A stretch of 64,000 nt of DNA from an uncultured Chloroflexia bacterium (GCA_963828165.1 CAWHDR010000001.1:2131543-2195542), one strand, 5' to 3'; counted from the first letter of the stretch, positions 2,127 through 51,338 are shown. Program-made: numbers and translations. Notes: generated by a model not told the origin, from the letters alone.

Positions 2127-2618
2127 TCAGCTCAGCGGCTGGCTTCGCTCCCCCTCCCCGGGCTTCCAGATCGTGATCGTCAGCTGGCCGTCCCGGAATT
2201 CGACCGACGAGGCGCCGGCGAGGTCGGCGACGTAGAACGGATCGAACTTCTGGCCCCGGAGGTCGAACCCGGACTCCGCGAACAGGTCCTCGGCAAACCG
2301 CGCGTGCAGCTCCAGATCCTGGACGTTCCGCGCCTCGCCCCAGACCTTGGCGTCACCGTCGGTAAGGTGCGTATCGACCGTCGCGGTGTGCAGGGAGAAC
2401 CGCGGATCGCGAGCCAGGTCGCGGAACTTCGTCGTGTTCGGCATCCCGACGAGGACCAGGTGACCATCGAGGATCCGCGGCTCCATCGGGCTGATGCGGG
2501 GAGCTCCATCGGATCGAAGCGTGGCCAGGAAGCAGAGGTTGCCCGTCGCCTTGTGGCGGCGCACGAATACCTCGGCGATCCCCGGCGCTTCCCGGGCGAG
2601 TTCGTTCCAGTCGACCAT
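2127..2618 (-). CDS. pyridoxamine 5-phosphate oxidase family (split-barrel FMN-binding) protein
   Basis: 163-aa ORF; NLCFLATLRSDGAPRISPMEP...LVGMPNTTKFRDLARDPRFSLH matches PNPOx-like proteins. Confidence 0.75.
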   Translation of the reverse strand: MVDWNELAREAPGIAEVFVRRHKATGNLCFLATLRSDGAPRISPMEPRILDGHLVLVGMPNTTKFRDLARDPRFSLHTATVDTHLTDGDAKVWGEARNVQDLELHARFAEDLFAESGFDLRGQKFDPFYVADLAGASSVEFRDGQLTITIWKPGEGERSQPLS

Positions 2619-2664
2619 CCGCCAAGACTACGATGGGCGCGTGACGGACGTGCGTTCGGGTCGC

Positions 2665-3016
2665 ATGGACGAGGGGCGCGCCGCGCTCGCCGACTACCAG
2701 TGGGCGGCGGCACTCGCGGCCTTCCGGCCATCGCGCTCATTCGCCTCCGTCGAGCAGCGGCCGACGTACGTTCGACGCGGCCCTCGCCGACCACCAACGC
2801 GCCCGCGATGAGCGGACCCGCGCGATGTTCGATTTCACCAAGCAGCTTGTCGGCTTCGACCCACCGAGCGAGGAGGACGCCGCGCTCTTCGCGGCCATCG
2901 CCGCCGATACCCAGGCCTCCAACGACTTCGCCAGCGTCCTTGCCGGCACGATGTCCGTCGAGGCGTTCTTCGATCCGGCGAACCTCGGCCGCCTGATCGG
3001 CGAACCTGCGGCCTAA
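2665..3016 (+). CDS. hypothetical protein, reading frame broken once (about 2750)
   Basis: ATG 2665 (MDEGRAALADYQWAAALAAF...) in ORF 2494..2811. The plausible continuation ...TFDAALADHQRARDERTRAMFDFTKQLVGFDPPSEEDAALFAAIAAD... is in the +1 frame (ORF 2825..3016). No family recognised. Confidence 0.3.
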
Positions 3017-3020
3017 CCGC

Positions 3021-3671
3021 TCACGGGTCCACCCTGATCGACCCAGCGGCGACCCCTTCCATGAGGCCGACGAGGACTGCCACGACCTCGTCGTCGGAGA
3101 GGCCGCCGCCAGCCAGGGATCGCCACGTCGTGAAGGCGATGGCGTGGCCCAGCACGGCCTTGAAGGTCAGCTGGCGGTCCGGTTCGATCTGCCAGCCCTC
3201 GATCAACGTGTCGATCAGCGCGATCATCCGCGCCTCGAACGCGTCTGGCGTCGTCGATGGTGGCGCACCGGGATCAACGTCGAAGAGGACGTTGCCGAGC
3301 ATCTGCTCGTTCGCCCGGTACCAGGCGATCATCTCGGTCAGGCCGTGCCGCAGCCGGTCCAGCGGGCCGGCGATCGTGCGCCACCCGTCCGGTTCCGGCA
3401 TGCGGGTCGAGCGGATCCCGTGCACCGTGCAAGCCTCGTAGAGCAATTCGAGATCCGGGAAGTGCGCATAGACCGTGTGCCGCTGCAGACCGGCGCGCTC
3501 GGCGATGGCGCGGATCGTGGTGCGCGACGGGCCGACCGTCGCATGGAGCTCGAAGGTCGCGGCGACGATGCGCTCGCGCGTTTGCTCGACCGCGGTCTGC
3601 CGGCGGCCCATCCGGTATGGCCGGCGCGCCGCCGGCGTTCGATCGGGTTTCGTCTGCCCAGCCATGTGCAC
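3021..3671 (-). CDS. TetR family transcriptional regulator
   Basis: N-terminal HTH RERIVAATFELHATVGPSRTTIRAIAERAGLQRHTVYAHFPD; GTG 3671 or ATG 3665 start; divergent from the cupin gene. Confidence 0.85.
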   Translation of the reverse strand: MHMAGQTKPDRTPAARRPYRMGRRQTAVEQTRERIVAATFELHATVGPSRTTIRAIAERAGLQRHTVYAHFPDLELLYEACTVHGIRSTRMPEPDGWRTIAGPLDRLRHGLTEMIAWYRANEQMLGNVLFDVDPGAPPSTTPDAFEARMIALIDTLIEGWQIEPDRQLTFKAVLGHAIAFTTWRSLAGGGLSDDEVVAVLVGLMEGVAAGSIRVDP

Positions 3672-3679
3672 CGAAAGTA

Positions 3680-3738
3680 TTGACCGCGGCCGGTGTGGGC
3701 GCTATGGTCTGTCGCACATGATTGCACATGCATGTGCA
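3680..3738 (+). promoter_or_regulatory. sigma70-like promoter (TTGACC-17-TATGGT) followed by a perfect 16-bp palindrome, candidate TetR operator
   Basis: TTGACC 3680-3685, 17-nt spacer, TATGGT 3703-3708; TGCACATGCATGTGCA at 3723-3738 is its own reverse complement and lies between the -10 box and the cupin RBS (GGAG 3747-3750). Confidence 0.55.
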
Positions 3739-3758
3739 TCGAAATTGGAGGCGAGCTG

Positions 3759-4262
3759 ATGACGGTCGTCGAGCGGACGCGATACCTGGTGGAGCCCGGG
3801 GCGGGGGAGATGATCTGGGACGGCCCGATCGACACCACCGTCAAGGTGCCGACGGAGACGACGCACGGGGCGCTATCGATCACCGAGATGGCGGTCAAGC
3901 CCGGGTTCATGGTGCCGCCACACGTCCACAGCGACACCGACGAGTGGTCGTACGTGCTCTTCGGGCGTATCGGCGCGCGGATCGGCGACGACGAGTTCAC
4001 CGCCGAACCCGGCAGCTGGATCCTCAAGCCGCGCGGCCTGATGCACACCTTCTGGAATGCCGGGCCCGAGCCGGCTCGCATCATCGAGCTGCTGACGCCC
4101 GGCGCCTTCGAGCACATGTTCCGCGGGATGGCCGACCTCGCGGCGTGCGACGAGCTGACCGCCGAACGGATGGATAGCCTGGGCGTCGAGTTCGGGACGA
4201 CGATGGACATGGCATGGGTGCCCGACCTGGCGGCCCGGTACGGAGTCGAGGTCGCGCTCTAG
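3759..4262 (+). CDS. cupin domain protein
   Basis: ORF 3693..4262, ATG 3759 behind GGAG; cupin motifs PPHVHSDTDEWSYVLFG and GLMHTFWNAG. Paralogue of 8564..9094. Confidence 0.8.
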   Translation: MTVVERTRYLVEPGAGEMIWDGPIDTTVKVPTETTHGALSITEMAVKPGFMVPPHVHSDTDEWSYVLFGRIGARIGDDEFTAEPGSWILKPRGLMHTFWNAGPEPARIIELLTPGAFEHMFRGMADLAACDELTAERMDSLGVEFGTTMDMAWVPDLAARYGVEVAL

Positions 4263-4342
4263 AGACGGGTCGGTGCCGCCGCCCCCGAAGAAGAGCCTGG
4301 AGCATCCGGCACACAGGCGGTGGGATCGACCCGATATGCGAG

Positions 4343-5209
4343 CTAGCCAACGAACCGAGCGACCACGGCCGCGGTCGCGTCCGGTTGCTCGAGCTGGGGT
4401 AGGTCCCCGGCGCCCTCGATGGTGATCCGTTCCAGGTGGGCGTTCGCGGCGACAAGCGATTCCGCGGCCGCGGGGTCGGTGAAGTGCGGGTGATCCCCGA
4501 AGAGGAGGAGCGTCGGGTTCGAGAGCCGCTGGTAGGCGTCCTCGGCGCGTGGATCATTGAGTAGTCCGGAGACGAATGCCAGCGGAGCCCGGTAGGCGCC
4601 CGGCTGCTGGCTTGTGTGCCAGCAGTACCGCTCGTACTCGCGCGGGACCCCCTCCGGATGCGCGAAGGTCTGCCGGAGGAACCAGCGGATCACCTGGCGC
4701 CGAGCGAGCACCGCGAAGATCAGCCGACCGACCCCCGTCCGACGCAGGAACCGATAAAGGTTCCGCGAGGATCGGCCGGCGCTGCCTTTGAAGCGGCCGA
4801 ATCCGGTCGGACTGATGAAGACGATGCGACCGAAACGGTCCGGATGCTCCGCGGCCGCGACGACGACGTACTGCGCCGGAAGGGAGAGGGCGACGACATC
4901 GACCGAGGCCTCGCCCGGCTGCAGGGCGGCCACCCGGATACGTTCGAGCTGCTCGCCATAGAGTTCCCAGCCATATGGCGCGTCGGGCCGATCAGATGTC
5001 CCGAACCCGAGCCAGTCGACCAGCACCACCCGCCGATGCTCCGCCAGCCGGATGGCCAGCGGAGCCAGCTCCATGCCGGTACCGGCTGCGTTGAAGCTGT
5101 GCAGGAGCAGGATCGTTCGTCCCTCGCCCAGCTGATAGGCGCTCACCCTGCCGGCCGCGGTCTCCAGATCAAATGGGACACCGGCTACGGGAGGCGGCAG
5201 GGGGTTCAC
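4343..5209 (-). CDS. alpha/beta hydrolase fold protein (last gene of the heliorhodopsin operon)
   Basis: Only the C-terminal 288 codons of ORF 4343..5785 look like protein (TILLLHSFNAAG..VVLVDWLGFGTSDRP..VVALSLPAQY..LLLFGDHPHF). GTG 5209 overlaps the upstream stop as GTGA. The nucleophile elbow is A-L-S-L-P rather than GxSxG. Confidence 0.8.
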   Translation of the reverse strand: MNPLPPPVAGVPFDLETAAGRVSAYQLGEGRTILLLHSFNAAGTGMELAPLAIRLAEHRRVVLVDWLGFGTSDRPDAPYGWELYGEQLERIRVAALQPGEASVDVVALSLPAQYVVVAAAEHPDRFGRIVFISPTGFGRFKGSAGRSSRNLYRFLRRTGVGRLIFAVLARRQVIRWFLRQTFAHPEGVPREYERYCWHTSQQPGAYRAPLAFVSGLLNDPRAEDAYQRLSNPTLLLFGDHPHFTDPAAAESLVAANAHLERITIEGAGDLPQLEQPDATAAVVARFVG

Positions 5210-6054
5210 GCCCGCGCCCGCAGCTCTTCGATCAGGTCGCCGAGCCCGCGCGGATCGGCGACCCAGCCGTCCGCACCGAGATCGAGCGCCACGCGCCCGT
5301 CCGGGATCGCGTTTCCGCCGACCAGGCGGGGAACCGACGGACGTTCGCGAAGGGCGGCGGCCAGAAGGCGTCCGGCCGCCGGACGGCGCTCGGTGTCGAC
5401 GACACTCACGACGACCGCGGCGAGAGATCCCGCACCACGAATTGCAGCGACGAGCGACGCGGCCGGCGTGTCGGGGCCCAGGTTGAGCACCCCGTAGCCG
5501 GCTTCCGTCAGGATGTCGGCGAGCATCGCTACCCCGAGTCCGTGACGCTCGCCGGATGGCATCGCCAGGATGACGATGTCCTTCTTGCGGCCCGGGCGCA
5601 CGAACCGAGGGCCCAGGCGTCCGATCAGGGTCGTGGCCACGCTGCTCGCGAGATGCTCCTGATCGATGGTGATCGCGCCGTCCTGCCATGACGCCCCGAT
5701 GGCGTGCAACGACGGTGCCAGGATGCGGACATGGACCTCGGCCGGCGCGAAGCCCGAGGCCATGGCAGCCTCGATGACTTGCCAACTACCGGCGACGTCC
5801 CCGCTGAGCATCCGCGCCTGAAGTCGCTCCTGCCACACCGACACCCGCGGATGGCTACGCCCGCGGCGGCGGCGACCACGTTCGGGCGGCGTCGGCGTCC
5901 GCTCGAGATCGGCGCGAGCGATCGTCCACGTCCCTCCGACCTTCCGGGCGGGCAGGATCCCCAGCCGGACTCGACGATAGATCGTCATGTAGTGGACGCC
6001 GAGAAGATCGGCGGCCTCGTGCAGGCTGAGATGACGTGCGGGGTCCGACGGCAT
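5206..6054 (-). CDS. HTH (excisionase/MerR-superfamily) plus B12-binding domain regulator, CarH/LitR-like photoreceptor candidate
   Basis: Start taken at ATG 6054 (M44 of ORF 5206..6183), which shares one base with the upstream TGA. HTH LSLHEAADLLGVHYMTIYRRVRLGILPARKVGGTWTI. Helical-bundle W123-x9-E133-H134 (IGASWQDGAITIDQEHLASS). Rossmann B12 motif E-R-H171-G-L-G in VILAMPSGERHGLGVAMLADIL. Confidence 0.8.
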   Translation of the reverse strand: MPSDPARHLSLHEAADLLGVHYMTIYRRVRLGILPARKVGGTWTIARADLERTPTPPERGRRRRGRSHPRVSVWQERLQARMLSGDVAGSWQVIEAAMASGFAPAEVHVRILAPSLHAIGASWQDGAITIDQEHLASSVATTLIGRLGPRFVRPGRKKDIVILAMPSGERHGLGVAMLADILTEAGYGVLNLGPDTPAASLVAAIRGAGSLAAVVVSVVDTERRPAAGRLLAAALRERPSVPRLVGGNAIPDGRVALDLGADGWVADPRGLGDLIEELRARA

Positions 6055-6845
6055 CAGCCCGCCAGCGTCCCCGCGAAGACCTGCCAGGCGAGCGCCGACT
6101 TCGCGACCAGGCTGAGCACGAAATAGGCCCTCTCGCCGAACACGTACGACTTCCATCGACCGACCCGCCGGTATTGGAGCCACATGTTAAGCGCGAAGAT
6201 GTTGAAGAAGACGAAGAGCGAGACGAAGATCGCGTAGACGAAGGCGGGCGGCTCGGCGGCGCTACCGGGCGACCAGAGGTAGACGCCCACGGCCAACCAC
6301 GGCGCGATCCCGACGACGCATCCAAGCCAGAACGGCCAAAGCGAACCGCCCGGTCGCTCGTATCGCTCCTGGACCGCACCGAAGAGGATCATGGCCGCAT
6401 TGGCCGCGAAGATGCCGATCAGCGCCGCGATATCGCTGATCCCGGTGAGCATGGCGATGAGCGCGATCATGACCGACGATGAGAGCGAATACTCGGCCCA
6501 GCGGAAGTAGTTGTGCTGCGCCGCCAGGCCGGAGGTGTAGCGCTCGAAGACACCGGGCACCGCCACGAGCCAGTGGAAGGCTGCGGACAGCAGCAGGAAG
6601 AGCGCGACGCCCCACGCCACGGAGACTTCGAACAGGGTGGTCGGCGGGCCTGCGGGAGTTCCCGGTGGGCCCTCCATGAACGTCGCGGTGACCGGCAGCG
6701 CGAAGGCGGTGGCGAGCGCGAGCACGGCCACGGCCTGGACGGCATGGAGGAAGCCAAGCCCGATGTTCCAGCGCCGCAGCGACGCGACCTGGGAGCCGGG
6801 GAGTTCGACGATGGGCGCGGTCATGGATTGGCCGGTGGCGATCAC
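6054..6845 (-). CDS. heliorhodopsin
   Basis: 263 aa, 7 TM. Near-collinear match, from memory, to heliorhodopsin 48C12: LHAVQAVAVLALATAFALPVT, GPPGT, FRWAEYSLSSSVMIALIA (E118 counter-ion position), PFWLGCVVGIAPW, GERAYFVLSLVAKSALAWQVFAGTL (K249 Schiff-base lysine). GTG 6845 behind AAGGA; alternative ATG 6824. Confidence 0.9.
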   Translation of the reverse strand: MIATGQSMTAPIVELPGSQVASLRRWNIGLGFLHAVQAVAVLALATAFALPVTATFMEGPPGTPAGPPTTLFEVSVAWGVALFLLLSAAFHWLVAVPGVFERYTSGLAAQHNYFRWAEYSLSSSVMIALIAMLTGISDIAALIGIFAANAAMILFGAVQERYERPGGSLWPFWLGCVVGIAPWLAVGVYLWSPGSAAEPPAFVYAIFVSLFVFFNIFALNMWLQYRRVGRWKSYVFGERAYFVLSLVAKSALAWQVFAGTLAG

Positions 6846-6926
6846 GGCTGTTCCTTCGCGGTATGAGGCTGGGGTCTGGGGTGACGGATGGGCGCTGTGT
6901 CAGATGATCAACTCGACCGGCGCAGT

Positions 6927-6940
6927 ATTTAGCACTAAAT
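6927..6940. promoter_or_regulatory. AT-rich inverted repeat ATTTAG-CA-CTAAAT upstream of the heliorhodopsin operon (candidate operator or -10 region)
   Basis: The one obviously AT-rich patch in the 230-bp divergent intergenic region 6846..7075; 6-2-6 inverted repeat read directly from the sequence. Function is inferred only. Confidence 0.3.
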
Positions 6941-7075
6941 CCGATCTGTCAAGCAAGGATCCCGCGAGGTCGTGACAGGAGTCGACGCCGGTTGGTACAT
7001 CTGTCCATAGGTCCCACCACCTCGACAGCTGACAGTTCGCTACGCAACTACCTGCTATCGAGGAACTGTCACCAC

Positions 7076-7516
7076 ATGCGTACCCACCGACCCCTGATCT
7101 CCGCCCTCCTTGCCCTCGTCGCGCTTGCGGGATTCGCCCCCGCTGCCCTCGGCGCCGGCGCGACCACCCAGACCTTCCGCGACTCGTTCCAGCTCATCGA
7201 CGACCACGGCGATGAGGCGTACATCTTCGACGTCGAAGCGGTCTCCCACCTGACCACGCGCCCGGACGGGACGATGTCCGTGACCTACAACCAGCGACAG
7301 GTGCAAACGCACACGGTCGGGGGCGTGGTCGTCGACGTCATCATCTCGAACTCGGCGCAGCACTCGCTGTCGCTCGGCGAGGACATGACGTTCGTGAGCC
7401 ACACCAGCGCGCACGATCGCTACAGAGCGGGCGACGATGCCTGCCAGACCACGACCCTGTGGCAGGTCGTGGACAACGAGCTTGTCATGCAGCACTTCAA
7501 GAGCGTCTGCCCGTAG
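7076..7516 (+). CDS. secreted hypothetical protein
   Basis: ORF 6992..7516, ATG 7076 gives signal peptide MRTHRPLISALLALVALAGFAPAALGAG; two Cys near the C-terminus. No family recognised. Confidence 0.5.
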   Translation: MRTHRPLISALLALVALAGFAPAALGAGATTQTFRDSFQLIDDHGDEAYIFDVEAVSHLTTRPDGTMSVTYNQRQVQTHTVGGVVVDVIISNSAQHSLSLGEDMTFVSHTSAHDRYRAGDDACQTTTLWQVVDNELVMQHFKSVCP

Positions 7517-9163: not shown

Positions 9164-12100
9164 CTAGCTGCAGCCGGACGTGCTCCCGCAGTTGAGGCAC
9201 TTGTAGCAACTGCCGTTGCGGACCATGATCGAGCCGCAGTCGGCGCAGCTCGGGGCGTCCGCCTGGGTCTGGAAGCTCACCTTCGTGGCCCCCAGGTTCA
9301 ACGTGATGGCCGACGTTCCGCCACCGTTCCCGTTGCCCGTCTTGCTGCCACCGTTCGCGGCATGCCCTTCCATTGGTCGCGATGACCTTCAGGGCATCCC
9401 CGGGAGCAGCGTCAGCCGGTGACGCCGCCACGGCCGTGGCCTTGGGCGACATCCGAGTCACCGGATTGGGCCTCCGAGGCGGTCGGAGGAGACGCCGCCT
9501 CGGAGGTCTCGGTGTGGGCCCCCTCACCATCTGAGCCGATCCCAGGCGCGGCCGCCAAGGTGGACGGAGTTTCATTGCTAGGTGCCACAGGCCGGGCTAC
9601 CGGGTCAGGGCTCGGCGCAGCAAGGCGCTGGGCGCCGAAGGCGGTTGTGCCTTGCGGAGCCGAGTCCTGGCCCGACACCTCAACCTGAGACCGATCGATG
9701 AGCCCCAGGCTCGCCTTGTCGTCCGTGTCCAGGAACCGCGACCCCAGCCACCGGAAGATGTAGTCCACGATGCTCTTCGCGATCGGGATCTCCTGGTTGC
9801 CGGTGAACCCGGACGGCTCGAACCGGACGTGCGCGAACTTGTTGACGAGGTCCTTGAACGGCACGCCGTACTGGAGTGCCACCGACACCGTCGTCGCGAA
9901 GGAGTCCATCAACCCCGAGACCGTGGACCCCTCCTTGGCCATCTTCAGGAAGATCTCGCCCGGCTGTCCGTCCGGATACAGCCCGACGGTGATGTAGCCC
10001 TCGTGGCCCGAGATCTCGAACTTGTGCGTGACCGCGGTCCGCTCGGACGGCAGGCGCCGGCGATGGGGGAGGGCCGCCTCGGCCTGGGCCTTGGCGAGCT
10101 GCTTCTTGAGGTCGGTGACGACCGCCGTGTCGACGACGTCGCCGTTCGTCTTGGAGGTGCTCAGCGGCTGCGAGCGCTTCGAGTTGTCGCGGTAGACCGC
10201 GATCGCCTTGAGGCCGAGCTTCCAGCCCTCGAGGTAGACCTGCTCGATCTCCTTGGCCGTGGCCGCCTCCGGCATGTTCACGGTCTTGGAGATGGCGCCC
10301 GAGATGAACGGCTGGATGGCGCCCATCATCCGGACGTGGCCCATGTAGTGGATGGACCGCGTGCCGTTGGCCGGCTTGAAGGCGCAGTCGAAGACCGACA
10401 GGTGCTCGGCCTTGATGTGCGGGGCGCCTTCGATGGTCTCGCGCTCGGTCAGGTAGTCGAGGATCTCGCTCGTCTGGTCGGCGGTGTAGCCGAGCTTCTT
10501 GAGCGCCGCCGGGACGGTCTGGTTGACGATCTTGAGGAAGCCCTCGCCGACCAGCTTCTTGTACTTGATGAGCGCGATGTCCGGCTCCACGCCGGTCGTG
10601 TCGCAATCCATCATGAAGGCGATCGTGCCAGTGGGCGCGAGCACGGTGACCTGCGCGTTGCGATAGCCGTGCTTCTTGCCGAGTTCGAGCGCCTCGTCGT
10701 AGACGATCTTGGCGTGGTCGATCAGGGTCGTGGGCACGCCCTGGGTCGGGATGCGGTACGCGGCGTCACGGTGCTTGCCGATGACGCGCAGGAACGGCGC
10801 TTCGTTGACCTTGTACTCGGCGAACGGGCCGCCGTGGTCGCGGGCGATGATCGCCGACTGCTTGTACGCCTCGCCGTGCATGATCGCGGTCAGGGCCGCG
10901 GCGTAGTTGCGCCCCTCGTCCGAGTCGTAGGCGAGACCGCGGCTCATCAGCAGCGCGCCGAGGTTGGCGTAGCCCAGGCCGAGCGGGCGGAACTTGTGCG
11001 AGTTCTCCTCGATCTTGGGCGTCGGGTAGCTGGCGTTATCGACCAGGATCTCCTGGGCCGTCAGCGTCACCTTGGCCGCGAACCGGTACGCCTCGGGGTC
11101 GAACTCGCCGTCCGCGTCGACGAACTTCATCAGGTTGAGTGAGGCGAGGTTGCAGGCGGTGTCGTTGAGGAACATGTACTCGGAGCACGGGTTGCTCGCG
11201 TGGATGCGATCCGTGTTCGCGGACGTGTGCCAGTCGTTGATCGTCGTGTCGTACTGGATGCCCGGGTCGCCGCACAGGTGCGCGGCTTCGGCCATCTTGC
11301 GGAAGATGTCGCGGGCCTTGTAGGTGTCCATCGGCTCGCCGCCGACCACGGCGTGGGTCGTCCACTCCTGGTCCTGCTCGACCGCGCGCATGAAGTCGTC
11401 CGTGACGCGGACGCTGTGGTTGGCGTTCTGGAAGAAGACGGAGCCGTAGGCCTCGCCGGTGAAGCTCGGGTCGTAGCCGGCCTCGATCAGCGCCCAGGCC
11501 TTCTGCTCTTCGTGCGCCTTCGAATCGATGAACTCGAGGACGTCCGGATGGCCGGCGTCGAGGATCACCATCTTGGCCGCGCGGCGGGTCTTGCCGCCCG
11601 ACTTCACGACGCCGGCGAAGGCGTCATAGCCCTTCATGAAGGAGACGGGGCCGCTTGCCGTGCCGCCGCCGGCCATCTTCTCCCTGGAAGAGCGGATCGT
11701 GGACAGGTTGCTGCCCGCGCCCGAGCCGAACTTGAAGAGCATCGCCTCGGTCTTGGCGAGGTCCATGATGCTGCTCATCGTGTCCTGGACCGAGTTGATG
11801 AAGCACGCGGAGCACTGCGGCTGCTTCTCGATCCCGACGTTGAACCAGACCGGCGAGTTGAAGGCCATCTTCTGGTGGACGATGAGGTGGGTCAGCTCGG
11901 CCTTGAAGGTCGCCAGGTCCTCGTCGCTCGCGAAGTAGCGCTGGGTCTCCGCCCAGGAGGCGATCGTGTTGACGACGCGATCGATGAGCTGCTTGACGCT
12001 CGTCTCACGCTCCGGGGTGTTGAGGTGCCCGCGGAAGTACTTGGACACCACGACGTTCGTGGCGAGCTGGGACCAGAAGTTGGGGACCTCGACGTCCTTC

Positions 12101-14002: not shown

Positions 14003-14437
14003 CTAGAGGGGGTCGGCTGACCCGCTGATCGCGGCCGCTGCCTCGCAGCATGGGCCGGATTGGTCGAGGACCGGCAGGGTCCGGGCCGTGGAGGTGAGGT
14101 GTTGCTCGAGGCGCTCGAGTCGGCGCTCGGTTGCCTGGAGGCGCGCGATGCGGTCGTGGATCTCGCGGCGTTTGGCGGCCAGCAGGGATGGCAGGTCGTT
14201 GGTGGTCTCTGCGCAGTGGCCGGCCTGGCACCAGCTCGCCATCCGGGCGGCGTCCGCCAGGGGGAGGTCAAGGCCGCGCAGGTCGATCAGCAGTCGCAGC
14301 CTCGCGACATCACTGACCGCGTACTCGCGGTAGCCGTTGTCGCGGCGTGACGCTGCGGGCAGCAGGCCCTCGCGTTCGTAGAAGCGGATGGTGTCGGCGG
14401 ACACCCCGACCTCGCGCGCGAACTCGCCGATCCTCAT
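14003..14437 (-). CDS. MerR family transcriptional regulator
   Basis: MRIGEFAREVGVSADTIRFYEREGLLP...YREY HTH, coiled-coil dimerisation helix, Cys clusters CQAGHC and GPCC. Confidence 0.85.
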   Translation of the reverse strand: MRIGEFAREVGVSADTIRFYEREGLLPAASRRDNGYREYAVSDVARLRLLIDLRGLDLPLADAARMASWCQAGHCAETTNDLPSLLAAKRREIHDRIARLQATERRLERLEQHLTSTARTLPVLDQSGPCCEAAAAISGSADPL

Positions 14438-14464: not shown

Positions 14465-15610
14465 CTAGCTGCGTGATCCAGTCGGGGGCACCGGGACTGC
14501 GCGGGCTATAGGCAGGCATTGGAGTGCACGCCGAATGGGTGGGCATGGCGGGGCGGGCCCGGCCCCGACGAGTCTCGCGAGGCGCTCGAAGGCGGCAACT
14601 TTGTCGACGCGCATCCGCTCGATCACGGTTCCCACTGCCGGCGAGTCCCCGTGACGCGCCCATCGGAGCCGGAGCCGGGTCCCGCCCTCGACCGGGTCGA
14701 GGTCCGTGACCGCCTCGATCGGACCGACGTCCGGCACGGCAAGTCGCCACGCGACGCGTTCATACGGCTGCCAATCGACGATCTCCTCGAGCGTCGCCAG
14801 CCGGCCCGTCACGCACTGCGATGTCGTGCCCACGCCACGCCGGCCGCCGACCGCCACGTCCTCCATCACCAGCGGGCCTTCCCACAACGTCCGCAGCGCC
14901 GGGGCCGTGAGATGGGCCCATACGACCGCGGGGTCCGCCGCGATGGTCGCCGCGACATCAAGAATGACGTCGGCTGCGATGGGATCGATGCGGCGGACGC
15001 CGGTCTCGGCCTGCCAACGAGCCTCCAGGTCGAGCGTGAAGGTCGCGATCCGGCCCAGATGCTCGATCGAGAGCTCACCCGCCCGCAAGCCAAGAGCGCC
15101 GGGCTCGAGATCAAGGGCCCGGACCGCGTCGTCTGTGAACAGCGCGAAGCCATCGCTCACCGTCCCGGCAGTCGTCGCCCCCTTCAACAGACGGTGCACG
15201 AGGATGACGTCCGACCCAGCCAGCTCGTCCCGACCGGCGATGCGTCCACGAACGAACGCGCCGTGGTGCACGAAGAGTTTGAGGTCGAGCCGGGGCGCCA
15301 GCCGGCACGAGTTGCAGTCGCAGCTCGTGGCCCCGTCGATGCTCCGCAGCCGACGCCGGAATGCGACGTAGGCCGCCTCGATCGCGTCGAGGAGCAGCGA
15401 GCCGTCGGACCGCCCGTCCTCGACGAAGAGGAATGCCGCATCGCCCTCGAACTTGGCCAGCCGGAACGGTGGTTCCAGGCGGCCGACGATCGTCTCGAGG
15501 AGGTCGCCCGCGATCGCCGGCGCATGCTCGATCTCACTGCCGGTCAGGTACGCCGTGTACCCGGTGAGGTCCGCGATGACCAGGAACCCAGACTCGGGTG
15601 TCGCTGCCAT
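14465..15610 (-). CDS. DUF2652 (nucleotidyl-cyclase-like fold) plus SRPBCC/START-like domain protein
   Basis: ORF 14465..15856, start at ATG 15610. GFLVIADLTGYTAYL...FEGDAAFLFV resembles DUF2652; C-terminal half (AADPAVVWAHLTAPALRTLWEG...) resembles polyketide-cyclase/SRPBCC proteins. 27 bp upstream of the MerR gene on the same strand. Confidence 0.6.
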   Translation of the reverse strand: MAATPESGFLVIADLTGYTAYLTGSEIEHAPAIAGDLLETIVGRLEPPFRLAKFEGDAAFLFVEDGRSDGSLLLDAIEAAYVAFRRRLRSIDGATSCDCNSCRLAPRLDLKLFVHHGAFVRGRIAGRDELAGSDVILVHRLLKGATTAGTVSDGFALFTDDAVRALDLEPGALGLRAGELSIEHLGRIATFTLDLEARWQAETGVRRIDPIAADVILDVAATIAADPAVVWAHLTAPALRTLWEGPLVMEDVAVGGRRGVGTTSQCVTGRLATLEEIVDWQPYERVAWRLAVPDVGPIEAVTDLDPVEGGTRLRLRWARHGDSPAVGTVIERMRVDKVAAFERLARLVGAGPAPPCPPIRRALQCLPIARAVPVPPTGSRS

Positions 15611-15833
15611 GGCGGCAACGCTAGACCCTGGAGCCGCTCCAATGTCAACAGCGAACTGGCCTGACCCTGTCACACGATGCTTCGAAATCGACGTTTCCCG
15701 GTCTGCCGGCAGGCGCCCGAGTGCTCGGTGCTGCGATGACGCCCCGAGTCGCGGCTGTGTCGTTCGTGGCTGGAACGCAACGACCCGATCGCCTTCGCGA
15801 GCGCCGCTGTACGGCCCGGGGACGCAGGCTCCG

Positions 15834-16559
15834 GTGGTGGCGCTGCACGTGGGCACATCGGGGTTCGACTACAAGGATTGGCGTGGGTCGTTCTACCCGC
15901 GGTTCCTGAAGTCGGGCGACCGATTGGCGTTCTATGCCGAACATTTCGACACCGTCGAGCTCAACGTCACGTTCTATCGGATGCCGAAGGCGGAGGCGTT
16001 CCGGGGCTGGCGGGATGCCGTTCCGGACGACTTCCGATTCGCGGTCAAGGCCAGCCGGTACCTGACGCACATCAAGCGGCTCGAGGACCCGCAGGGTCCG
16101 GTCGAGTTCCTGATGGAGCGTGCCGGCGAGCTCGGCGACAAGCTCGGGGTGGTGCTCCTGCAGCTGCCGCCCACCCTCGAGATCGACCTGGACCGATTGG
16201 ACGACACGCTGCGGGCGTTTCGGCGGGCGGTGCCCATCGCGGTCGAGCCGCGCCACCAGAGCTGGTTCGTGCCGGAGCTGTGCGAGCTGCTCCGCGAGCA
16301 CGGGGCGGCGTTCGTCCTCGCGGATCGGCGCGGGCCGATCACGCCACTCTGGAGCACGACCGACTGGACGTACCTGCGGCTCCACCAGGGGAGAGCCACC
16401 CCACGGCCGTGCTACGGGCGGCACGCCCTCGCGAGCTGGGTCGACCGGCTGGCCGCGCTACCCGGCGGCGACCGCGGGTTCGTCTACTTCAACAACGACC
16501 ACCGAGCGTGCGCCGTCTACAACGCCCGGACGTTCGAGCGGATCGTCGCCCGGCGCTGA
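15834..16559 (+). CDS. DUF72 domain protein
   Basis: VALHVGTSGFDYKDWRGSFYP...YAEHFDTVELNVTFYRMP...FAVKASRYLTH is the DUF72 signature; GTG 15834 or 15837 start within ORF 15453..16559. Confidence 0.8.
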   Translation: MVALHVGTSGFDYKDWRGSFYPRFLKSGDRLAFYAEHFDTVELNVTFYRMPKAEAFRGWRDAVPDDFRFAVKASRYLTHIKRLEDPQGPVEFLMERAGELGDKLGVVLLQLPPTLEIDLDRLDDTLRAFRRAVPIAVEPRHQSWFVPELCELLREHGAAFVLADRRGPITPLWSTTDWTYLRLHQGRATPRPCYGRHALASWVDRLAALPGGDRGFVYFNNDHRACAVYNARTFERIVARR

Positions 16560-32066: not shown

Positions 32067-33579
32067 GTGCAGCTTCGTGTCGTCACCGACCAGCCGTGGG
32101 ACGTCAAAGCCGACGTCCTCGTCATCCCGTATGTGGGCGATCCGACCTTCGAAGGGCCTTTCGACGAGATCGACCGGCGAACCGGCGGTGAGCTTCGAGC
32201 GCTCGCCGGCTTCAAGGAGCTGACCGGCAAGCGTTACGCCACGACGCTGGCGGCGGTCGGCGAGCTTCCGGCCGGGCGGCTCGTCCTGATCGGGGCCGGG
32301 GACACGGCGACGATCGACCGCGAAGTCATCGTCCGAGTGGGAGCCGCGGCGTCACGCCGCCTGGGTGGTCGCGTCGTCCGCAGCGTGGCCTTCTGGCTGG
32401 CCCCACTGTCGGGCCTCGACACGATCGACGGCGACGTCGCGGTCGTGGCGGAGCTGCTGACGCGCGGCGTGGTCGAGGGTTCGTACGACCCCAAGTCGAT
32501 CTACCGCGACGACGACGAATTCAAGCCACCGAAGCTCGACGAGCTGATCCTGGTCATGCCGGACGGTGACGCCGGTGCGATCAAGGCAGCGGCCGAGCGC
32601 GGCGTGATCATCGGCGAGGGCGCGAACAACGCGCGGACATTGTCCAATCGTGCCGCGAACGACGTGTCGCCAGAGGTCCTGGCCGAGGAGGCGCGCGCGA
32701 TCGCCGAGCGCAACGACCTGTGGATCGACGTCATCGAGCCCGATCGGGCGACCGAGCTCGGGATGGGCATGTTCATGGCGGTCGGGCGCGGGAGCGACAA
32801 CCCGCCGCGGATGATCGTCATGCGGTCCGGCAAGGAGGGGGAGCGCGATTCGCTGGATCGCCACGTCGCGATCGTCGGCAAGGGCGTCTGCTTCGATTTC
32901 GGGCGGCATCAGCATCAAGCCATCCGACCGGATGGAAGAGATGAAGATGGACAAGACCGGCGCCTGCACGGTCCTCGCGGTCATGGAAACCGTGGCACGT
33001 CTGGCGCCGGGGACTCCATTGCTCGGGCTCGCGCCGGCCGTTGAGAACATGCCAGGGCCGCACTCCACCCGACCCGGCGACATCGTGACTGCGCTGAACG
33101 GCAAGAAGGTCGACATCACGAACACTGACGCCGAGGGCCGGCTCATCCTCGGCGATGCGCTGACCTACGCGGAACGGTTGGGCGCCACGCATCTCGTCGA
33201 TGTTGCGACGCTCACCGGCGCCGTCGCGCGAGCCCTCGGATACCTCATCACGGGGGCGTTCGGTGCCCCGCAGGACTGGTACGACCAGGTCGTGGCCGCG
33301 GGCACCCGGGCCGGCGAGCGCTACTGGCAGCTGCCGCTGATCGACGAGTACGTGCCGGACATGGACAGCTGGTATGCCGACTTCCAGAACGCCGGGTCGG
33401 CCGAGGGTTCGCTCGTGAAGAGCGGTCTCTTCCTGCGCGAGTTCGTCACCAAGCCGTGGGTCCACCTCGACATCGCCGGGACCGCGTACTACCGCAAGGC
33501 CCTGCCGTTCGCGCCACGCGGGTCGACCGGCGTGTCGCACGCCACGCTCGTCGAGCTCGCCCTGGCCGGTCGGGCCTGA
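32067..33579 (+). CDS. pepA: leucyl aminopeptidase (M17), one frame break at the TTT run 32897-32899
   Basis: GTG 32067 behind GGAGG. ...VGKGVCFD then, in the +1 frame, SGGISIKPSDRMEEMKMDKTGA...NTDAEGRLILGDAL...LDIAGTA. Removing one T from GATTTCGGG restores GAT TCG GGC. Confidence 0.85.
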
Positions 33580-34419: not shown

Positions 34420-34522
34420 CCCCCGACCCAGCACCGCCTCGCGCGGCGTCCGGAGGGCTCCGGACGGCGCTGTCGAAGTCGTGTCAGGGGCTCGCCCCCG
34501 CGCTCGTCTCGGAGGTTCGTCG

Positions 34523-37500
34523 ATGCGCTCCCCGTCCGGTCAGGCCCGCTGCGCGGGCGTTCGGTCGCGCCTGGTCGCTCTCGTCGGGAGCGTGCTCCTG
34601 CTCGCCGGTCTCGTGCCCGCAGCGACCGTCGTGCCCGTGTTGGCCTCGCATACGACGGCGCCCACGAGCGTGACGATCGCCGGCAGCCTGCAGAGCGAGC
34701 TGGGATGCCCAGGCGACTGGCAGCCGGAGTGCGCCGCCACGCACCTTACGTACGACCCGGCAGACAGCGTCTGGCAGGGCACGTTCGCGGTGCCGTCCGC
34801 CGCCGCCCCGTACGAATACAAGGCCGCCGTGAACGACACCTGGGACGAGAACTACGGCGCCAACGCGACGTTCAACGGGGGCAACATCGGCCTGACGGTC
34901 GGCGACGCAAACGCGACGAAGTTCTACTACTCGCACGATTCGCACTGGGTCACGAGCAACCGCAATGCCGTGATCGCCACGGCCGCCGGCAGCTTCCAGA
35001 GCGAGATCGGCTGCCCCGGCGACTGGGCCCCCGACTGCCTGCGCTCGTGGCTCCAGGATCGCGACGGGAACGGCGTCTACACGTTCGTCACGGCCGACAT
35101 CCCCGCCGGCGACTACGAGTTCAAGGTGGCGCTCGCCGAAGCGTGGGACACGTCCTATCCCGCCGATAACGTCGCGTTCTCGGTCGCGAGCGGGAACACC
35201 GTCACGTTCACGTACACGGCGTCCACCAACGAGGTCGCCGTCGACGTCGAGGGCGACGACCCGCCCGATCCCGCCGACGAGGCCCTGGCCCTTCGCTCGC
35301 TGCGGGACGACCTGACCGAGGAGGTCTTCTATTTCGTCATGCCCGACCGTTTCGACAACGGGAACGCGGCCAACGACGAAGGTAGTCTGACCGGGGATCG
35401 CATGACCACCGGGCTCGATGCCACGGACAAGGGCTTCTATCACGGGGGCGACATCGCCGGCCTGCTGGAGCGGCTCGACTACATCGAGTCGCTCGGTACC
35501 ACGGCGGTCTGGATGGCGCCCATCTTCAAGAACCGGCCGGTCCAGGGTTCAGCCGCGGACGCGTCGGCTGGCTATCACGGGTACTGGACCACGGACTACA
35601 CGCAGATCGACCCGCACTTCGGCACGAACGCGGAGCTGGAGGCGTTCGTGGACGCGGCCCACGGTCGTGGGATCAAGGTCTTCTTCGACATCATCACGAA
35701 TCACACCGCGGACGTGATCGATCACGAGGAAGGGACGTACACCTACCGGAACAAGGCGACGTTCCCGTATGTCGACGCCGACGGCAACGAGTTCGACGAC
35801 CGCGATCACGCGGGCTCGGACACGTTCCCGCCGCTCGACCTCGACTCGTTCCCGTACAGCCCGATCTTCCGGACCACCGCCGACGCGACCGTCAAGGCGC
35901 CGGCCTGGCTGAACGACCGGACGATGTACCACAACCGCGGCGACTCCACATTCGTGGGCGAGAACTCCGAGTACGGCGATTTCTTCGGGCTCGACGACCT
36001 CTTCACCGAGCGTCCCGAGGTCGTCGATGGGATGGTCGACATCTTCGAGACCTGGGTCACGGACGTCGGCATCGACGGATTCCGCATCGACACCGCGAAG
36101 CACGTCAACATCGAGTTCTGGCAGGAATTCGGGCCGGCCATCCAGGCTCATGCTGCCAGCGAGGGCAACGACGACTTCTTCATGTTCGGCGAGGTCTTCG
36201 ACTCGAACCCCGCCTTCATGTCGCGCTACACGACCGAGGGCAAGCTTCAGGCGACGCTGGACTTCGGCTTCCAGGCACGGGCACAGACCTTCGCCGCGAA
36301 TTCCGCCGCGACCGACAACCTGCGCGACCTCTTCGCGCTCGACGACCACTACACGGACGTGGATTCCAACGCCTACAGCCTGCCGACGTTCCTGGGCAAC
36401 CACGACATGGGCCGCATCGGACGGTTCATCGCGGAGGCAAACCCGGGTGCGTCGGACGACGAGCTGCTGGCCCGCGACCAGCTGGCGCACGCGCTCATGT
36501 ACCTCGTCCGCGGGATGCCCGTCGTCTACTACGGCGACGAGCAGGGCTTAACCGGTGACGGCGGCGACAAGGACGCGCGCCAGGACATGATGCCGAGCCA
36601 GGTCACCTCCTACAACGACGACGACCTGATCGGGACGAGCGCCACGACCGCCGACGCGAACTTCGACGAGGCGCATCCGCTCTACGCGTTCCTCGGCGAT
36701 CTTGCCGCGCTGAAGGCCGATCACGCGGCGCTGCGCGACGGCGCCCAGGTTCATCGGTACTCGACGAGCGAGGCCGGCATCTACGCCTTCTCCCGGATCG
36801 ACGCCGACGAGGGGATCGAATATGTCGTCGCGCTCAACAACGCCGAGACGGCGAAGACCCAGACGATCCAGACGTACTCGGCCGACGCCGGCTTCAGCGG
36901 CTTGTGGCCATCCGGCCTCGGCGACCTGACGTCGAACGGTTCGGGCCAGATCACGATCACCGTGCCGCCGCTGTCGGCCGTCGTGTATCGCGCCGACGCG
37001 GCTCTCGCTGCTGACTCGCAGGCGCCCGGCATCACGCTGGCCGCCCCGCCCGACGGCGCGACCGTCGTTGGCAAGGTCGAGGTCGGCGCCACGCTCGCCG
37101 ATCCGGAGTTCGCGGAGGTCACGTTCGCGGCCAAGGTCGGTGACGCGACGGAATGGTCGGTCATCGGGACCGACGACAACGCGCCCTACCGGGTCTTCTA
37201 CGACACGAGCGGCCTCGCGGAAGGCACCGACCTCGCGTTCAAGGCCGTCGTGCGCGACGCAGCGGGCAACGTCGACTCCGACACCGGCTCGGCGGTGGTC
37301 GGCGCGGTCGAGCCGCCACCGAGCGGCGGCGGGACCCCGGACTACGCCGTCGTCCACTACCAGCGGCCGGCCGGCGATTACGACGGCTGGGGCTTCCACT
37401 TCTGGGGCGACATCGATCAGACCGTCGAGTGGACGAGCCCCGTCCCGCTCGCAGGCGAGGATGCCTACGGCCCGTTCGCCTGGGTCAAGCTCCTGCCCAA

Positions 37501-37954
37501 CGCGAGCGAGGTCGGCTTCATCCCGCACAAGGGTGACGAGAAGGACCCGGGCCCCGATCGGTTCTTCAACCCCTCGCAGAACCCGGAGATCTGGCTCAAG
37601 CAGGGCGACCTGACGGTCTACACGTCACGTGCCGACGCGCAGGGGTACGTGGAGATCCGCTACCAGCGCCCGGACGACGACTACACCGGCTGGGGTCTGC
37701 ACCTCTGGGGAGACGCGATCGACCCGAGCGAGGGAACGACCTGGGAGGCGCCGAAACCACCGACGGCGATCGATGATTACGGGGCCTACTGGAAGGTCCT
37801 GATCGGCGACGCGACCCAGCCCGTCAACTTCATCGTTCATCAAGGGCGACGAGAAGGACACGGCCGAAGACCGCAGCTTCCTGCCGACGGAGAACGCGGA
37901 AGCCTGGCTCCAGTCCGGCGACTCCACGATCCACAGGACGCGCGGCTCCGCTGA
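34523..37954 (+). CDS. secreted GH13 alpha-amylase with N-terminal starch-binding-like modules and CBM41-like repeats (intact part of an amylase-pullulanase fusion)
   Basis: ATG 34523 behind GGAGG; signal peptide. Duplicated AGS(L/F)QSE(L/I)GCPGDW modules. GH13 regions DRFDNG, GGDIAGL, DIITNHT, GFRIDTAKH, FGEVF, FLGNHD. Then HYQRPAGDYDGWGFHFWGD and IRYQRPDDDYTGWGLHLWGD modules. The listed stop at 37954 is reached only because of an extra C at 37841. Confidence 0.85.
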   Translation: MRSPSGQARCAGVRSRLVALVGSVLLLAGLVPAATVVPVLASHTTAPTSVTIAGSLQSELGCPGDWQPECAATHLTYDPADSVWQGTFAVPSAAAPYEYKAAVNDTWDENYGANATFNGGNIGLTVGDANATKFYYSHDSHWVTSNRNAVIATAAGSFQSEIGCPGDWAPDCLRSWLQDRDGNGVYTFVTADIPAGDYEFKVALAEAWDTSYPADNVAFSVASGNTVTFTYTASTNEVAVDVEGDDPPDPADEALALRSLRDDLTEEVFYFVMPDRFDNGNAANDEGSLTGDRMTTGLDATDKGFYHGGDIAGLLERLDYIESLGTTAVWMAPIFKNRPVQGSAADASAGYHGYWTTDYTQIDPHFGTNAELEAFVDAAHGRGIKVFFDIITNHTADVIDHEEGTYTYRNKATFPYVDADGNEFDDRDHAGSDTFPPLDLDSFPYSPIFRTTADATVKAPAWLNDRTMYHNRGDSTFVGENSEYGDFFGLDDLFTERPEVVDGMVDIFETWVTDVGIDGFRIDTAKHVNIEFWQEFGPAIQAHAASEGNDDFFMFGEVFDSNPAFMSRYTTEGKLQATLDFGFQARAQTFAANSAATDNLRDLFALDDHYTDVDSNAYSLPTFLGNHDMGRIGRFIAEANPGASDDELLARDQLAHALMYLVRGMPVVYYGDEQGLTGDGGDKDARQDMMPSQVTSYNDDDLIGTSATTADANFDEAHPLYAFLGDLAALKADHAALRDGAQVHRYSTSEAGIYAFSRIDADEGIEYVVALNNAETAKTQTIQTYSADAGFSGLWPSGLGDLTSNGSGQITITVPPLSAVVYRADAALAADSQAPGITLAAPPDGATVVGKVEVGATLADPEFAEVTFAAKVGDATEWSVIGTDDNAPYRVFYDTSGLAEGTDLAFKAVVRDAAGNVDSDTGSAVVGAVEPPPSGGGTPDYAVVHYQRPAGDYDGWGFHFWGDIDQTVEWTSPVPLAGEDAYGPFAWVKLLPNASEVGFIPHKGDEKDPGPDRFFNPSQNPEIWLKQGDLTVYTSRADAQGYVEIRYQRPDDDYTGWGLHLWGDAIDPSEGTTWEAPKPPTAIDDYGAYWKVLIGDATQPVNFIVHQGRREGHGRRPQLPADGERGSLAPVRRLHDPQDARLR

Positions 37955-40900: not shown

Positions 40901-41029
40901 TCCAAGTTCAGCCAGAAGACGGGCACGTTCTTCGTGCCCGCGCTCACCACGGCCGTCTTCGTGGAGCATCAGCCGGGGCCCCCGTCAGGGCAGCTGAACC
41001 GTTCGTTCCTGGGTGTCGGTGGGTCGTGA
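37842..41029 (+). pseudogene. pullulanase (GH13 debranching) half of the fusion, about 24 frame breaks (pseudogene or assembly indels)
   Basis: Continues ...IVHKGDEKD in the +1 frame with a third CBM41-like module (IHYHRSDGDYGD..FWGLHTW). Then come pullulanase motifs scattered over all frames: [119 protein letters not shown]. Confidence 0.8.

Positions 41030-50068: not shown

Positions 50069-50072
<4 letters not shown>
48906..50072 (-). CDS. NUDIX hydrolase (ADP-ribose pyrophosphatase-like) fused to a YcxB-like membrane domain; start codon unresolved
   Basis: Nudix box GGLDVADDATKEDPDIAARRELEEETGL. The conserved N-terminal extension (..VERADGSRAVRDIAGHPGAV) lies upstream of the ORF-track start (GTG 49886) in the same frame and contains no ATG/GTG/TTG. 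The only candidate is CTG 50072. C-terminal half has two TM segments plus a YcxB-like region (TWSTFRKVHDVAECFLF). Confidence 0.65.
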
Positions 50073-51199
<1,127 letters not shown>

Positions 51200-51338
51200 G
51201 GCGCGCAGTCCTCCGTCCCGTCAGCTCATCGCGGGCCCTTGCATCCTGCCGCCGAAGCGAACGTGGACGGGCCCCGTACGTGGCAGCGCGGGGTCGCCGC
51301 ATCGTACGGTCCGCGTTCCCCGGGCGCAAGCCTCGGAC

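Follow-up and report, generated by a model that had tools for sequence, protein, structure and literature searches.

The adenosylcobalamin (AdoCbl) photoreceptor-regulators CarH and class I LitR, exemplified by Thermus thermophilus CarH (PDB 5C8D/5C8E), Myxococcus CarH and the LitR proteins of Bacillus and Streptomyces, are the closest described counterparts of a regulator, here termed REG, that is encoded directly downstream of a heliorhodopsin (HeR) in an uncultured Chloroflexia bacterium. The genes lie at positions 4343-6845 of a 64,000-nucleotide (nt) stretch of DNA (GCA_963828165.1 CAWHDR010000001.1:2131543-2195542; hereafter, the window), on the minus strand and in the order HeR, REG, HYD. 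REG is a protein of 282 amino acids (aa) with HTH_17 and B12-binding domains, HYD has an alpha/beta-hydrolase fold, and the gene caller of a public assembly agrees with all three genes (263, 282 and 288 aa). REG has the same domain order as CarH and class I LitR, contains the Wx9EH motif and the lower axial His of ExHxxG, and reaches a template-modelling (TM) score of about 0.8 over the cobalamin-binding domain. As in those systems, it is predicted to be autoregulated through an operator that overlaps its promoter, and its relatives adjoin photolyase and other photo-oxidative-stress genes. The differences concern the DNA-binding domain, which is HTH_17 rather than MerR_1/MerR at Pfam thresholds, together with a score far below the cut-off of the CarH equivalog profile; the candidate operator, a 5-2-5 palindrome in the promoter spacer where Thermus CarH has 11-bp direct repeats over the -35 element; and the cargo, which is a heliorhodopsin and not carotenoid genes.

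The best PDB sequence match of REG is CtMerR of Chloracidobacterium thermophilum (PDB 8JBS/8JBT; 4.5e-16), with which it has four motifs in common, although the identity is only about 26-29%. A study of light-responsive cobalamin domains with SignatureFinder predicted HTH-fused cobalamin-binding domains as one class and described no operon, operator or heliorhodopsin link (PMC11796333). A LitR-family regulator beside a separate photoreceptor is known from Pseudomonas mendocina, in which the class II LitR protein PmlR2 does not sense B12 and depends on the 'short' LOV protein PmSB-LOV (PMC9758184). The resemblance extends to a regulon with photolyase, SDR, FAD oxidoreductase and CFA-like synthase genes; the difference is that in REG the B12 photoreceptor signature is complete and that HeR is dispensable in several lineages.

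Described operons of heliorhodopsins with partner genes are those of AbHeR with glutamine synthetase, TsHeR with a photolyase and OcHeR with the OmrDE ABC transporter, and it has been proposed that HeR regulates its neighbour by binding (PMC11109279). The HeR studied here is likewise co-oriented and overlapping with its neighbours, and a photolyase is found near many loci related to the window, but the protein encoded next to it is in its own right a photoreceptor-regulator, by which HeR expression is most likely controlled. Shim et al. (2024) listed 'MerR family transcriptional regulator' and 'alpha/beta hydrolase' among ten HeR neighbour groups, noting no B12 domain, and their MerR group had no other grouped gene (PMC11109279). 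As far as the accessible part of that data set goes, the N-termini of the published MerR-group HeRs differ from that of the window HeR, and the regulators may not be the same. Cobalamin or B12 as a regulator cofactor, CarH and LitR go unmentioned both there and in the gene-context survey of Bulzu et al., which makes no mention of MerR either (PMC11109279; PMC8612252). The initial annotation of this locus knew of no characterized module joining HeR to a B12 regulator. Our literature search likewise found no paper combining heliorhodopsin with CarH, LitR or cobalamin-based regulation, but a HeR beside a 'MerR family regulator' or an 'alpha/beta hydrolase' had already been listed (PMC11109279).

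We propose, with a probability of about 0.68, that the locus is a light-derepressed, autoregulated operon in which REG acts as a CarH/LitR-like AdoCbl photoreceptor switch and HeR is its cargo. CarH/LitR-like B12 photoreceptors are a known kind; the HTH_17 subfamily, its predicted operator and the control of a heliorhodopsin are uncharacterized. The gene identities, overlaps, motifs and fold described below, the conservation of promoter and operator and the synteny counts are direct observations.

The heliorhodopsin and the B12-binding regulator

Heliorhodopsins share an inverted membrane topology, retinal binding and a slow photocycle; in the family member 48C12, E107 in transmembrane helix 3 is the single Glu counterion and K241 in helix 7 is the Schiff-base Lys. 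The HeR gene of the window (6054..6845, minus strand; start GTG 6845-6843, stop TGA 6056-6054; 263 aa) matches the Pfam Heliorhodopsin profile PF18761 with 332 bits (cut-off 26.7) over profile positions 1-242 of 242, and the NCBIfam HeR equivalog NF038020 with 318 bits (cut-off 100) over positions 1-244 of 244. In the alignment with 48C12 (6su3), E118 falls on the counterion E107 and K249 on the Schiff-base K241. The initial annotation had called this open reading frame (ORF) a heliorhodopsin, naming the same two residues, and, as judged from its sequence, it is a bona fide one. A Shine-Dalgarno-like GAAGGA (6852..6857, minus strand) stands 6 nt before the HeR GTG, and AAGGA is kept at this position in an alignment of upstream regions. 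The HeR TGA and the REG ATG share one base (TGATG, 6056-6052), and the REG stop overlaps the HYD GTG (GTGA, 5209-5206); these overlaps, from which translational coupling had been suggested, are present in the window and recur in relatives.

REG (5206..6054, minus strand; start ATG 6054-6052, stop TGA 5208-5206) combines HTH_17 with a four-helix bundle and a Rossmann cobalamin domain. A 325-aa ORF from GTG 6183 was rejected as the REG gene; homologues and the public gene call begin at the ATG. HTH_17 (residues 9-52, 39.5 bits), B12-binding_2 and B12-binding all match above the Pfam cut-offs, whereas REG has no match to Pfam MerR or MerR_1 at E<=0.01, so that of the domains expected at the outset the MerR type drops out. 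One relative, P0128, also matches PF00376, and the DNA-binding domain is therefore related to MerR, if non-canonical. The cobalamin-binding part carries GASW123, E133-H134, GERH171 (within GERH171GLG) and GPDTP197, with W123 and E133-H134 forming Wx9EH. Experimentally validated light-responsive cobalamin domains are defined by the corresponding GxxW, EH, GxxH and GxxxP (PMC11796333). All four motifs are invariant in 32 homologues and are kept in loci of both phyla, Chloroflexota and Actinobacteria.

Behind CtMerR (8jbs), the best PDB sequence matches of REG are photocobilins and CarH (5c8d, 3.9e-13), and MtgC, MtaC and MetH match more weakly. An AlphaFold2 (AF2) model (predicted local distance difference test score, pLDDT, 81.5) shows helices at 69-151 followed by a beta/alpha domain, and its top 50 Foldseek matches are CarH, CtMerR or photocobilin structures only. 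Some members of the family are annotated, in JGI/KEGG style, as 'MerR family, light-induced transcriptional regulator'. The earlier description of the middle protein as a helix-turn-helix (HTH) joined to a B12 module with a photoreceptor signature is thus borne out by domains above their cut-offs and by all four motifs. REG appears to work like CarH; because of its HTH_17 domain and its low CarH equivalog score, it is not a strict CarH orthologue. The REG-like subfamily is very large, with 1442 matches at E<=1e-20 in an actinobacterial search. An AdoCbl-dependent class II ribonucleotide reductase (9412-12051, minus strand; NF005122, 1315 bits) is encoded 2.6 kb from the operon, which indicates that the cell handles and uses AdoCbl and that the bacterium depends on this cofactor.

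A conserved palindrome within the operon promoter

A promoter scan of 4000-7300 found a sole sigma-70-like site, TTGACA-17-AATACT at 6952-6924 on the minus strand, matching at 10 of 12 positions and having a spacer of 17 nt between the -35 hexamer TTGACA (6947..6952) and the -10 hexamer AATACT (6924..6929); an alternative extended -10, TGcTAAATA (6934-6926, minus strand), can be read from the sequence. The spacer is filled by the perfect palindrome ATTTAGTGCTAAAT (6927..6940; core TTTAG-N2-CTAAA), which overlaps the -10 and is the candidate REG operator. It is the single such site in the window, whose G+C content is 69.5%, against an expectation of 0.02. Across related loci the palindrome occurs once per locus in 47 of 61, always at the operon head. 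TTGACA keeps its distance from it at about 45 loci in Chloroflexota genomes and at about 70 in metagenomes, and the related genome loci share the conserved block cTTGACA-N7-TTTAGTGCTAAATAct. When metagenome contigs were searched for the complete promoter pattern, 74 loci emerged, nearly all of them fasciclin-(HeR)-REG operons, which indicates that the palindrome would serve as a dedicated autoregulatory site. Three of the pattern matches in the metagenome contigs (L100, L106 and L113) were rejected as regulon members, being chance matches in low-GC DNA.

The light-autoregulated operon, raised among other ideas in the initial annotation, is the one that we favour, since a conserved palindrome inside the promoter accompanies the regulator family in two phyla. 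From what is known of the MerR family, REG bound in the spacer would occlude the promoter rather than remodel it, because a 17-nt spacer is already optimal. In the dark, AdoCbl-loaded REG oligomers would bind ATTTAGTGCTAAAT between the -35 and the -10, blocking RNA polymerase. UV-to-green light would photolyse the Co-C bond, REG would leave the DNA and a single mRNA would be made, from which HeR, REG and HYD would be translated by stop-start coupling. New REG, reloading AdoCbl, would then reset the switch.

Operon composition in Chloroflexota relatives

The closest relatives of the window are metagenome-assembled genomes (MAGs) labelled Chloroflexia, Chloroflexota or Candidatus Limnocylindrales, of soil origin for the most part. 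Their usual operon runs from the promoter/operator through fasciclin (a PF02469 lipoprotein), HeR and REG to an optional HYD and an optional NmrA/DUF2867 gene, and a photolyase is often convergent downstream or divergent upstream of related operons. The fasciclin gene is absent from the window and from three other loci (L018, L022 and L024). According to the alignment of upstream regions, the deletion in the window spans the fasciclin 5' untranslated region and reaches into a conserved GC-rich hairpin, of which the 3' arm alone remains (GACCCCAGCCTC; 6865..6876, minus strand) and marks the event; the window holds a derived, fasciclin-deleted form of the operon. The trio of the initial annotation was to that extent incomplete: the usual operon adds fasciclin and often NmrA/DUF2867, which could not be seen from a derived form. 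In the relatives, the whole hairpin (CCGAGGGTGGGGCC...GGCCCCACCCTCG; L001:5160-5200 and equivalents) lies between fasciclin and HeR, shows compensatory changes in 6 of 13 pairs and has no T-run. It may attenuate or stabilize the mRNA at the junction between the gene of a highly expressed secreted protein and HeR-REG.

At 64 Chloroflexota-type REG loci, HeR is full length and directly upstream of REG in 50, partial in 8 and absent in 6, and the synteny counts led us to reject chance adjacency. At 43 of 54 loci the HeR stop overlaps the REG start; 16-61 nt separate the genes in the 10 remaining adjacent pairs, and in L082 the flanking HeR is non-adjacent. HYD is intact in 21 of 48 loci, partial in 4 and absent from 23; at 25 of 27 loci REG and HYD share 4 nt or 1 nt. 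The recurrence of both overlaps shows that the arrangement is not due to chance. Conservation of the trio in relatives, which the initial annotation had made a condition, holds for the HeR-REG adjacency at most loci and less so for HYD. Nor is the partner set fixed, as had been suggested, since HeR itself is missing or a remnant in 14 of the 64 loci while REG is intact with its motifs.

A few of these 14 may be assembly frameshifts. Frameshift-split genes are present in the window and in many MFD MAGs, so partial genes in related MAG loci need careful reading, and some 'partial' HeR or HYD calls (for example, in L034) may be assembly errors. In L002, L015, L016 and L019, the partial HeRs are C-terminal remnants left by internal deletions, and the short fasciclin-to-REG distances show that these deletions are real. 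At HeR-less loci, REG is no more diverged than elsewhere, and its motifs, its recognition helix and the operator are kept. The constant core is the operator and REG, usually with fasciclin; HeR is frequent but dispensable, given that the HeR-less loci keep REG, its motifs and the operator, and HYD is an occasional passenger.

Multiple copies also occur. The contig CAVYZQ010000011.1 carries two complete fasciclin-HeR-REG-HYD operons (L007 and L012) about 37 kb apart and in opposite orientation. In L082, a second HeR (303-1090; 44% identical) lies upstream of the promoter, and the operon proper (2553-4211, fasciclin to REG) retains a small HeR remnant.

REG relatives beyond Chloroflexota

REG relatives in Acidimicrobiia (40-48% identity) have no HeR, and the palindrome is present. 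In L050, where it reads TTTAGTACTAAA, an amine oxidase gene diverges on one side of it from an operon on the other that comprises, in this order, SRPBCC, SDR, pyrimidine-dimer glycosylase, NmrA/DUF2867 and REG genes. In L042-L045 and L049, one palindrome lies in the intergenic region between amine oxidase/DUF1365 and SRPBCC, and a second copy, TTTACTGCTAAA, about 50 nt upstream of REG, which there stands alone; from base composition, about 5e-4 palindromes would be expected per actinobacterial locus. Other actinobacterial relatives adjoin CMAS, DUF1365 and amine oxidase genes on one side and SRPBCC, SDR, NmrA/DUF2867 and photolyase genes on the other, and the exact palindrome is found in L138, between the divergent genes, and in L139, where it precedes an operon of two genes, the second being REG. 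The half-site of the palindrome and the recognition helix, VHYMT(I/V)YRxVR, are conserved together. These kinds of neighbour genes match the light-inducible set controlled by LitR, namely photolyase, SDR, FAD oxidoreductase and CFA/UfaM-type synthase (PMC9758184); within the window, only HeR and HYD are linked to REG.

More remotely, homologues of the fasciclin, NmrA/DUF2867 and photolyase genes (43-57% identity) also accompany distant B12-binding proteins of Planctomycetota and Deltaproteobacteria (L053, L056, L058 and L060). A set of light-response genes may therefore be shared between phyla, fasciclin having an unexplained role in it.

Weighing the readings

Several points weigh against a light-derepressed, autoregulated operon. 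B12 binding, photolysis, oligomerization, DNA binding, the light response, the sign of the regulation (repression) and co-transcription are steps that we infer. The DNA-binding domain of REG is of the excisionase-type HTH_17 kind and not of the canonical MerR type, and the NCBIfam TransRegCarH equivalog gives REG 69.8 bits against a cut-off of 400, over residues 58-270, that is, the cobalamin-binding domain only. The palindrome could belong to another regulator. It has no second copy in the window with up to 3 mismatches, and thus no further operator-bearing target there, and the metagenome scan yielded no convincing second REG target, with L069 (another lipoprotein) and L075 (BlaI-like) as single, unconfirmed cases. 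Nor is it found in the actinobacterial L140, in the Acidimicrobiales locus L047 or in the HeR-REG locus L063. In L063, HeR is immediately preceded by an enolase N terminus joined to a fasciclin remnant; this locus is probably a rearrangement or a chimeric assembly, and for that reason we discount it as counter-evidence on the operator. No terminator was detected after HYD. The tight HeR/REG overlap, finally, would fit a stoichiometric complex of the two proteins as well.

The last point leads to an alternative in which HeR acts upstream of REG: light-activated HeR would bind REG (or HYD) and modulate the repressor, for example by sequestration, so that the pair would integrate retinal and cobalamin light signals. 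We consider this unlikely, though several observations speak for it. HeR directly precedes REG in 50 of 64 loci and overlaps it in 43 of 54, characterized HeRs bind products of their own operons (glutamine synthetase, a photolyase and an ABC transporter; PMC11109279), and a LitR-family regulator is known to be the effector of an adjacent LOV photoreceptor (PMC9758184). Unlike class II LitR, however, REG keeps every motif of an autonomous B12 photoreceptor. In at least ten Chloroflexota-type loci HeR is lacking or is a C-terminal remnant, and REG, its motifs and the operator are equally conserved there; actinobacterial relatives share the operator and the recognition helix without any HeR. That these relatives work in HeR-free photoprotection clusters disfavours modulation of REG by HeR, which the initial annotation had entertained. 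HeR absorbs at about 550 nm and AdoCbl likewise in the green, so the spectral gain from combining both chromophores would be small. As the HeR-less lineages keep REG, motifs and operator, we rejected a HeR-dependent regulator as the principal account of REG. The best reading of HeR is as light-induced cargo of a photoprotection-type regulon, together with fasciclin and NmrA/DUF2867 and with photolyase nearby in relatives, and not as a sensor upstream of REG.

The two ideas can be joined into a two-photoreceptor circuit in which REG would gate HeR synthesis and lit HeR would in turn bind REG, or a non-catalytic HYD adaptor, at the membrane, prolonging or tuning derepression. We hold this to be quite unlikely; if true, the HeR-REG feedback would be the first case of a rhodopsin acting back on a cobalamin photoreceptor and would offer a handle on heliorhodopsin signalling.

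Very unlikely, in our estimate, is that REG senses cobalamin availability or redox state instead of light, with the HeR linkage reflecting incidental co-expression. B12 domains of the same fold do occur in non-photoreceptor corrinoid proteins, to which the weak MtgC, MtaC and MetH matches belong, and a B12-dependent ribonucleotide reductase is encoded nearby. But the four-motif signature, including Wx9EH, that separates light-responsive from enzyme-type domains (PMC11796333) is invariant in REG, the top structural matches are all photoreceptors, and the linked clusters with rhodopsin, photolyase, pyrimidine-dimer glycosylase and CFA-type synthase genes are related to light or UV.

The hydrolase-fold protein

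HYD (4343..5209, minus strand; start GTG 5209-5207; 288 aa) matches Abhydrolase_6 with 56.5 bits and Abhydrolase_1 with 51.2 bits, as well as esterases and hydrolases in the PDB, which confirms the alpha/beta-hydrolase fold assigned initially. Its nucleophile, Ser109, is invariant and sits in an A-L-S-L-P(A/G) elbow (ALSLPA in the window) instead of the canonical Gly-x-Ser-x-Gly. Aligned with PlaF (6i8w), the catalytic D258 is replaced by P241 and H286 by D269; residues 264-275 contain no His, and the loop carries D269 and Q272. The P241/D269 pattern and the lack of a His in this loop are common to all 22 locus-derived and 30 database orthologues, in which D239-H240-P241 and D269 are invariant. 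Of 123 distant representatives, 115 retain the Ser; opposite Q272, 55 have His and 52 have Gln, and only 31 combine Ser, Asp and His at the aligned positions. Within residues 238-243, the invariant G-D239-H240-P241 stands at the acid loop and an Asp at the His position, so that acid and base look swapped. Such a site could be dead or unusual, and a non-canonical active site using D239/H240 could be present. HYD is probably a dispensable accessory and not a canonical serine hydrolase. That it would instead be the enzymatic output under HeR or REG control, acting for example on a retinyl or carotenoid ester or a lipid, was suggested in the initial annotation and draws on the REG/HYD overlap (25 of 27 loci), on the invariance of Ser109, D239 and H240 as a possible non-canonical site and on the listing of alpha/beta hydrolases as a HeR neighbour group (PMC11109279), but it is highly improbable because the canonical catalytic Asp and His are replaced in every orthologue (Pro241; Asp269 and Gln272), quite apart from the ALSLP elbow, the 31 of 123 distant relatives that combine the three residues and the 27 of 48 loci in which the gene is absent (23) or partial (4).

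Other features of the window

About 50 window proteins were scanned against Pfam. They cover sugar metabolism, ABC transport, two-component signalling, cytochrome c assembly, an M23 peptidase and a pullulanase, and no carotenoid or retinal biosynthesis domains (including crt) were found among them, in agreement with the initial annotation. An M17 aminopeptidase (32067-33579) and a pullulanase-type enzyme (34481-41029) are each split across adjacent or overlapping ORFs, which points to frameshift errors of the sort to which long-read assemblies are prone. Directly upstream of a gene for a MalK-like ABC ATPase (50069-51199, minus strand) is a malK-III RNA motif (51197-51293, minus strand; Rfam RF03009; 79 bits, gathering score 50). 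A protein with DUF2652 and SRPBCC (Polyketide_cyc2) domains (14465-15856, minus strand) adjoins a canonical MerR_1 regulator (14003-14437, minus strand); this pair is without the palindrome, and SRPBCC proteins also head the actinobacterial operons that REG relatives are predicted to control.

Implications

The function of heliorhodopsins is largely open, and the few roles known for them have all come from operon neighbours. In a widespread group of soil Chloroflexota, synthesis of HeR apparently depends on a light signal from a second photoreceptor, one based on cobalamin. Because HeR sits in a set with fasciclin, NmrA/DUF2867 and photolyase whose actinobacterial counterparts are photo-damage clusters, our data point to a photoprotective or repair-assisting role for it. 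The locus is a compact, testable system with a 30-bp promoter/operator, one regulator and one cofactor. Its regulator belongs to a very large uncharacterized subfamily of CarH-like proteins with an excisionase-type domain and a predicted operator, which could serve as green-light switches in high-GC hosts.

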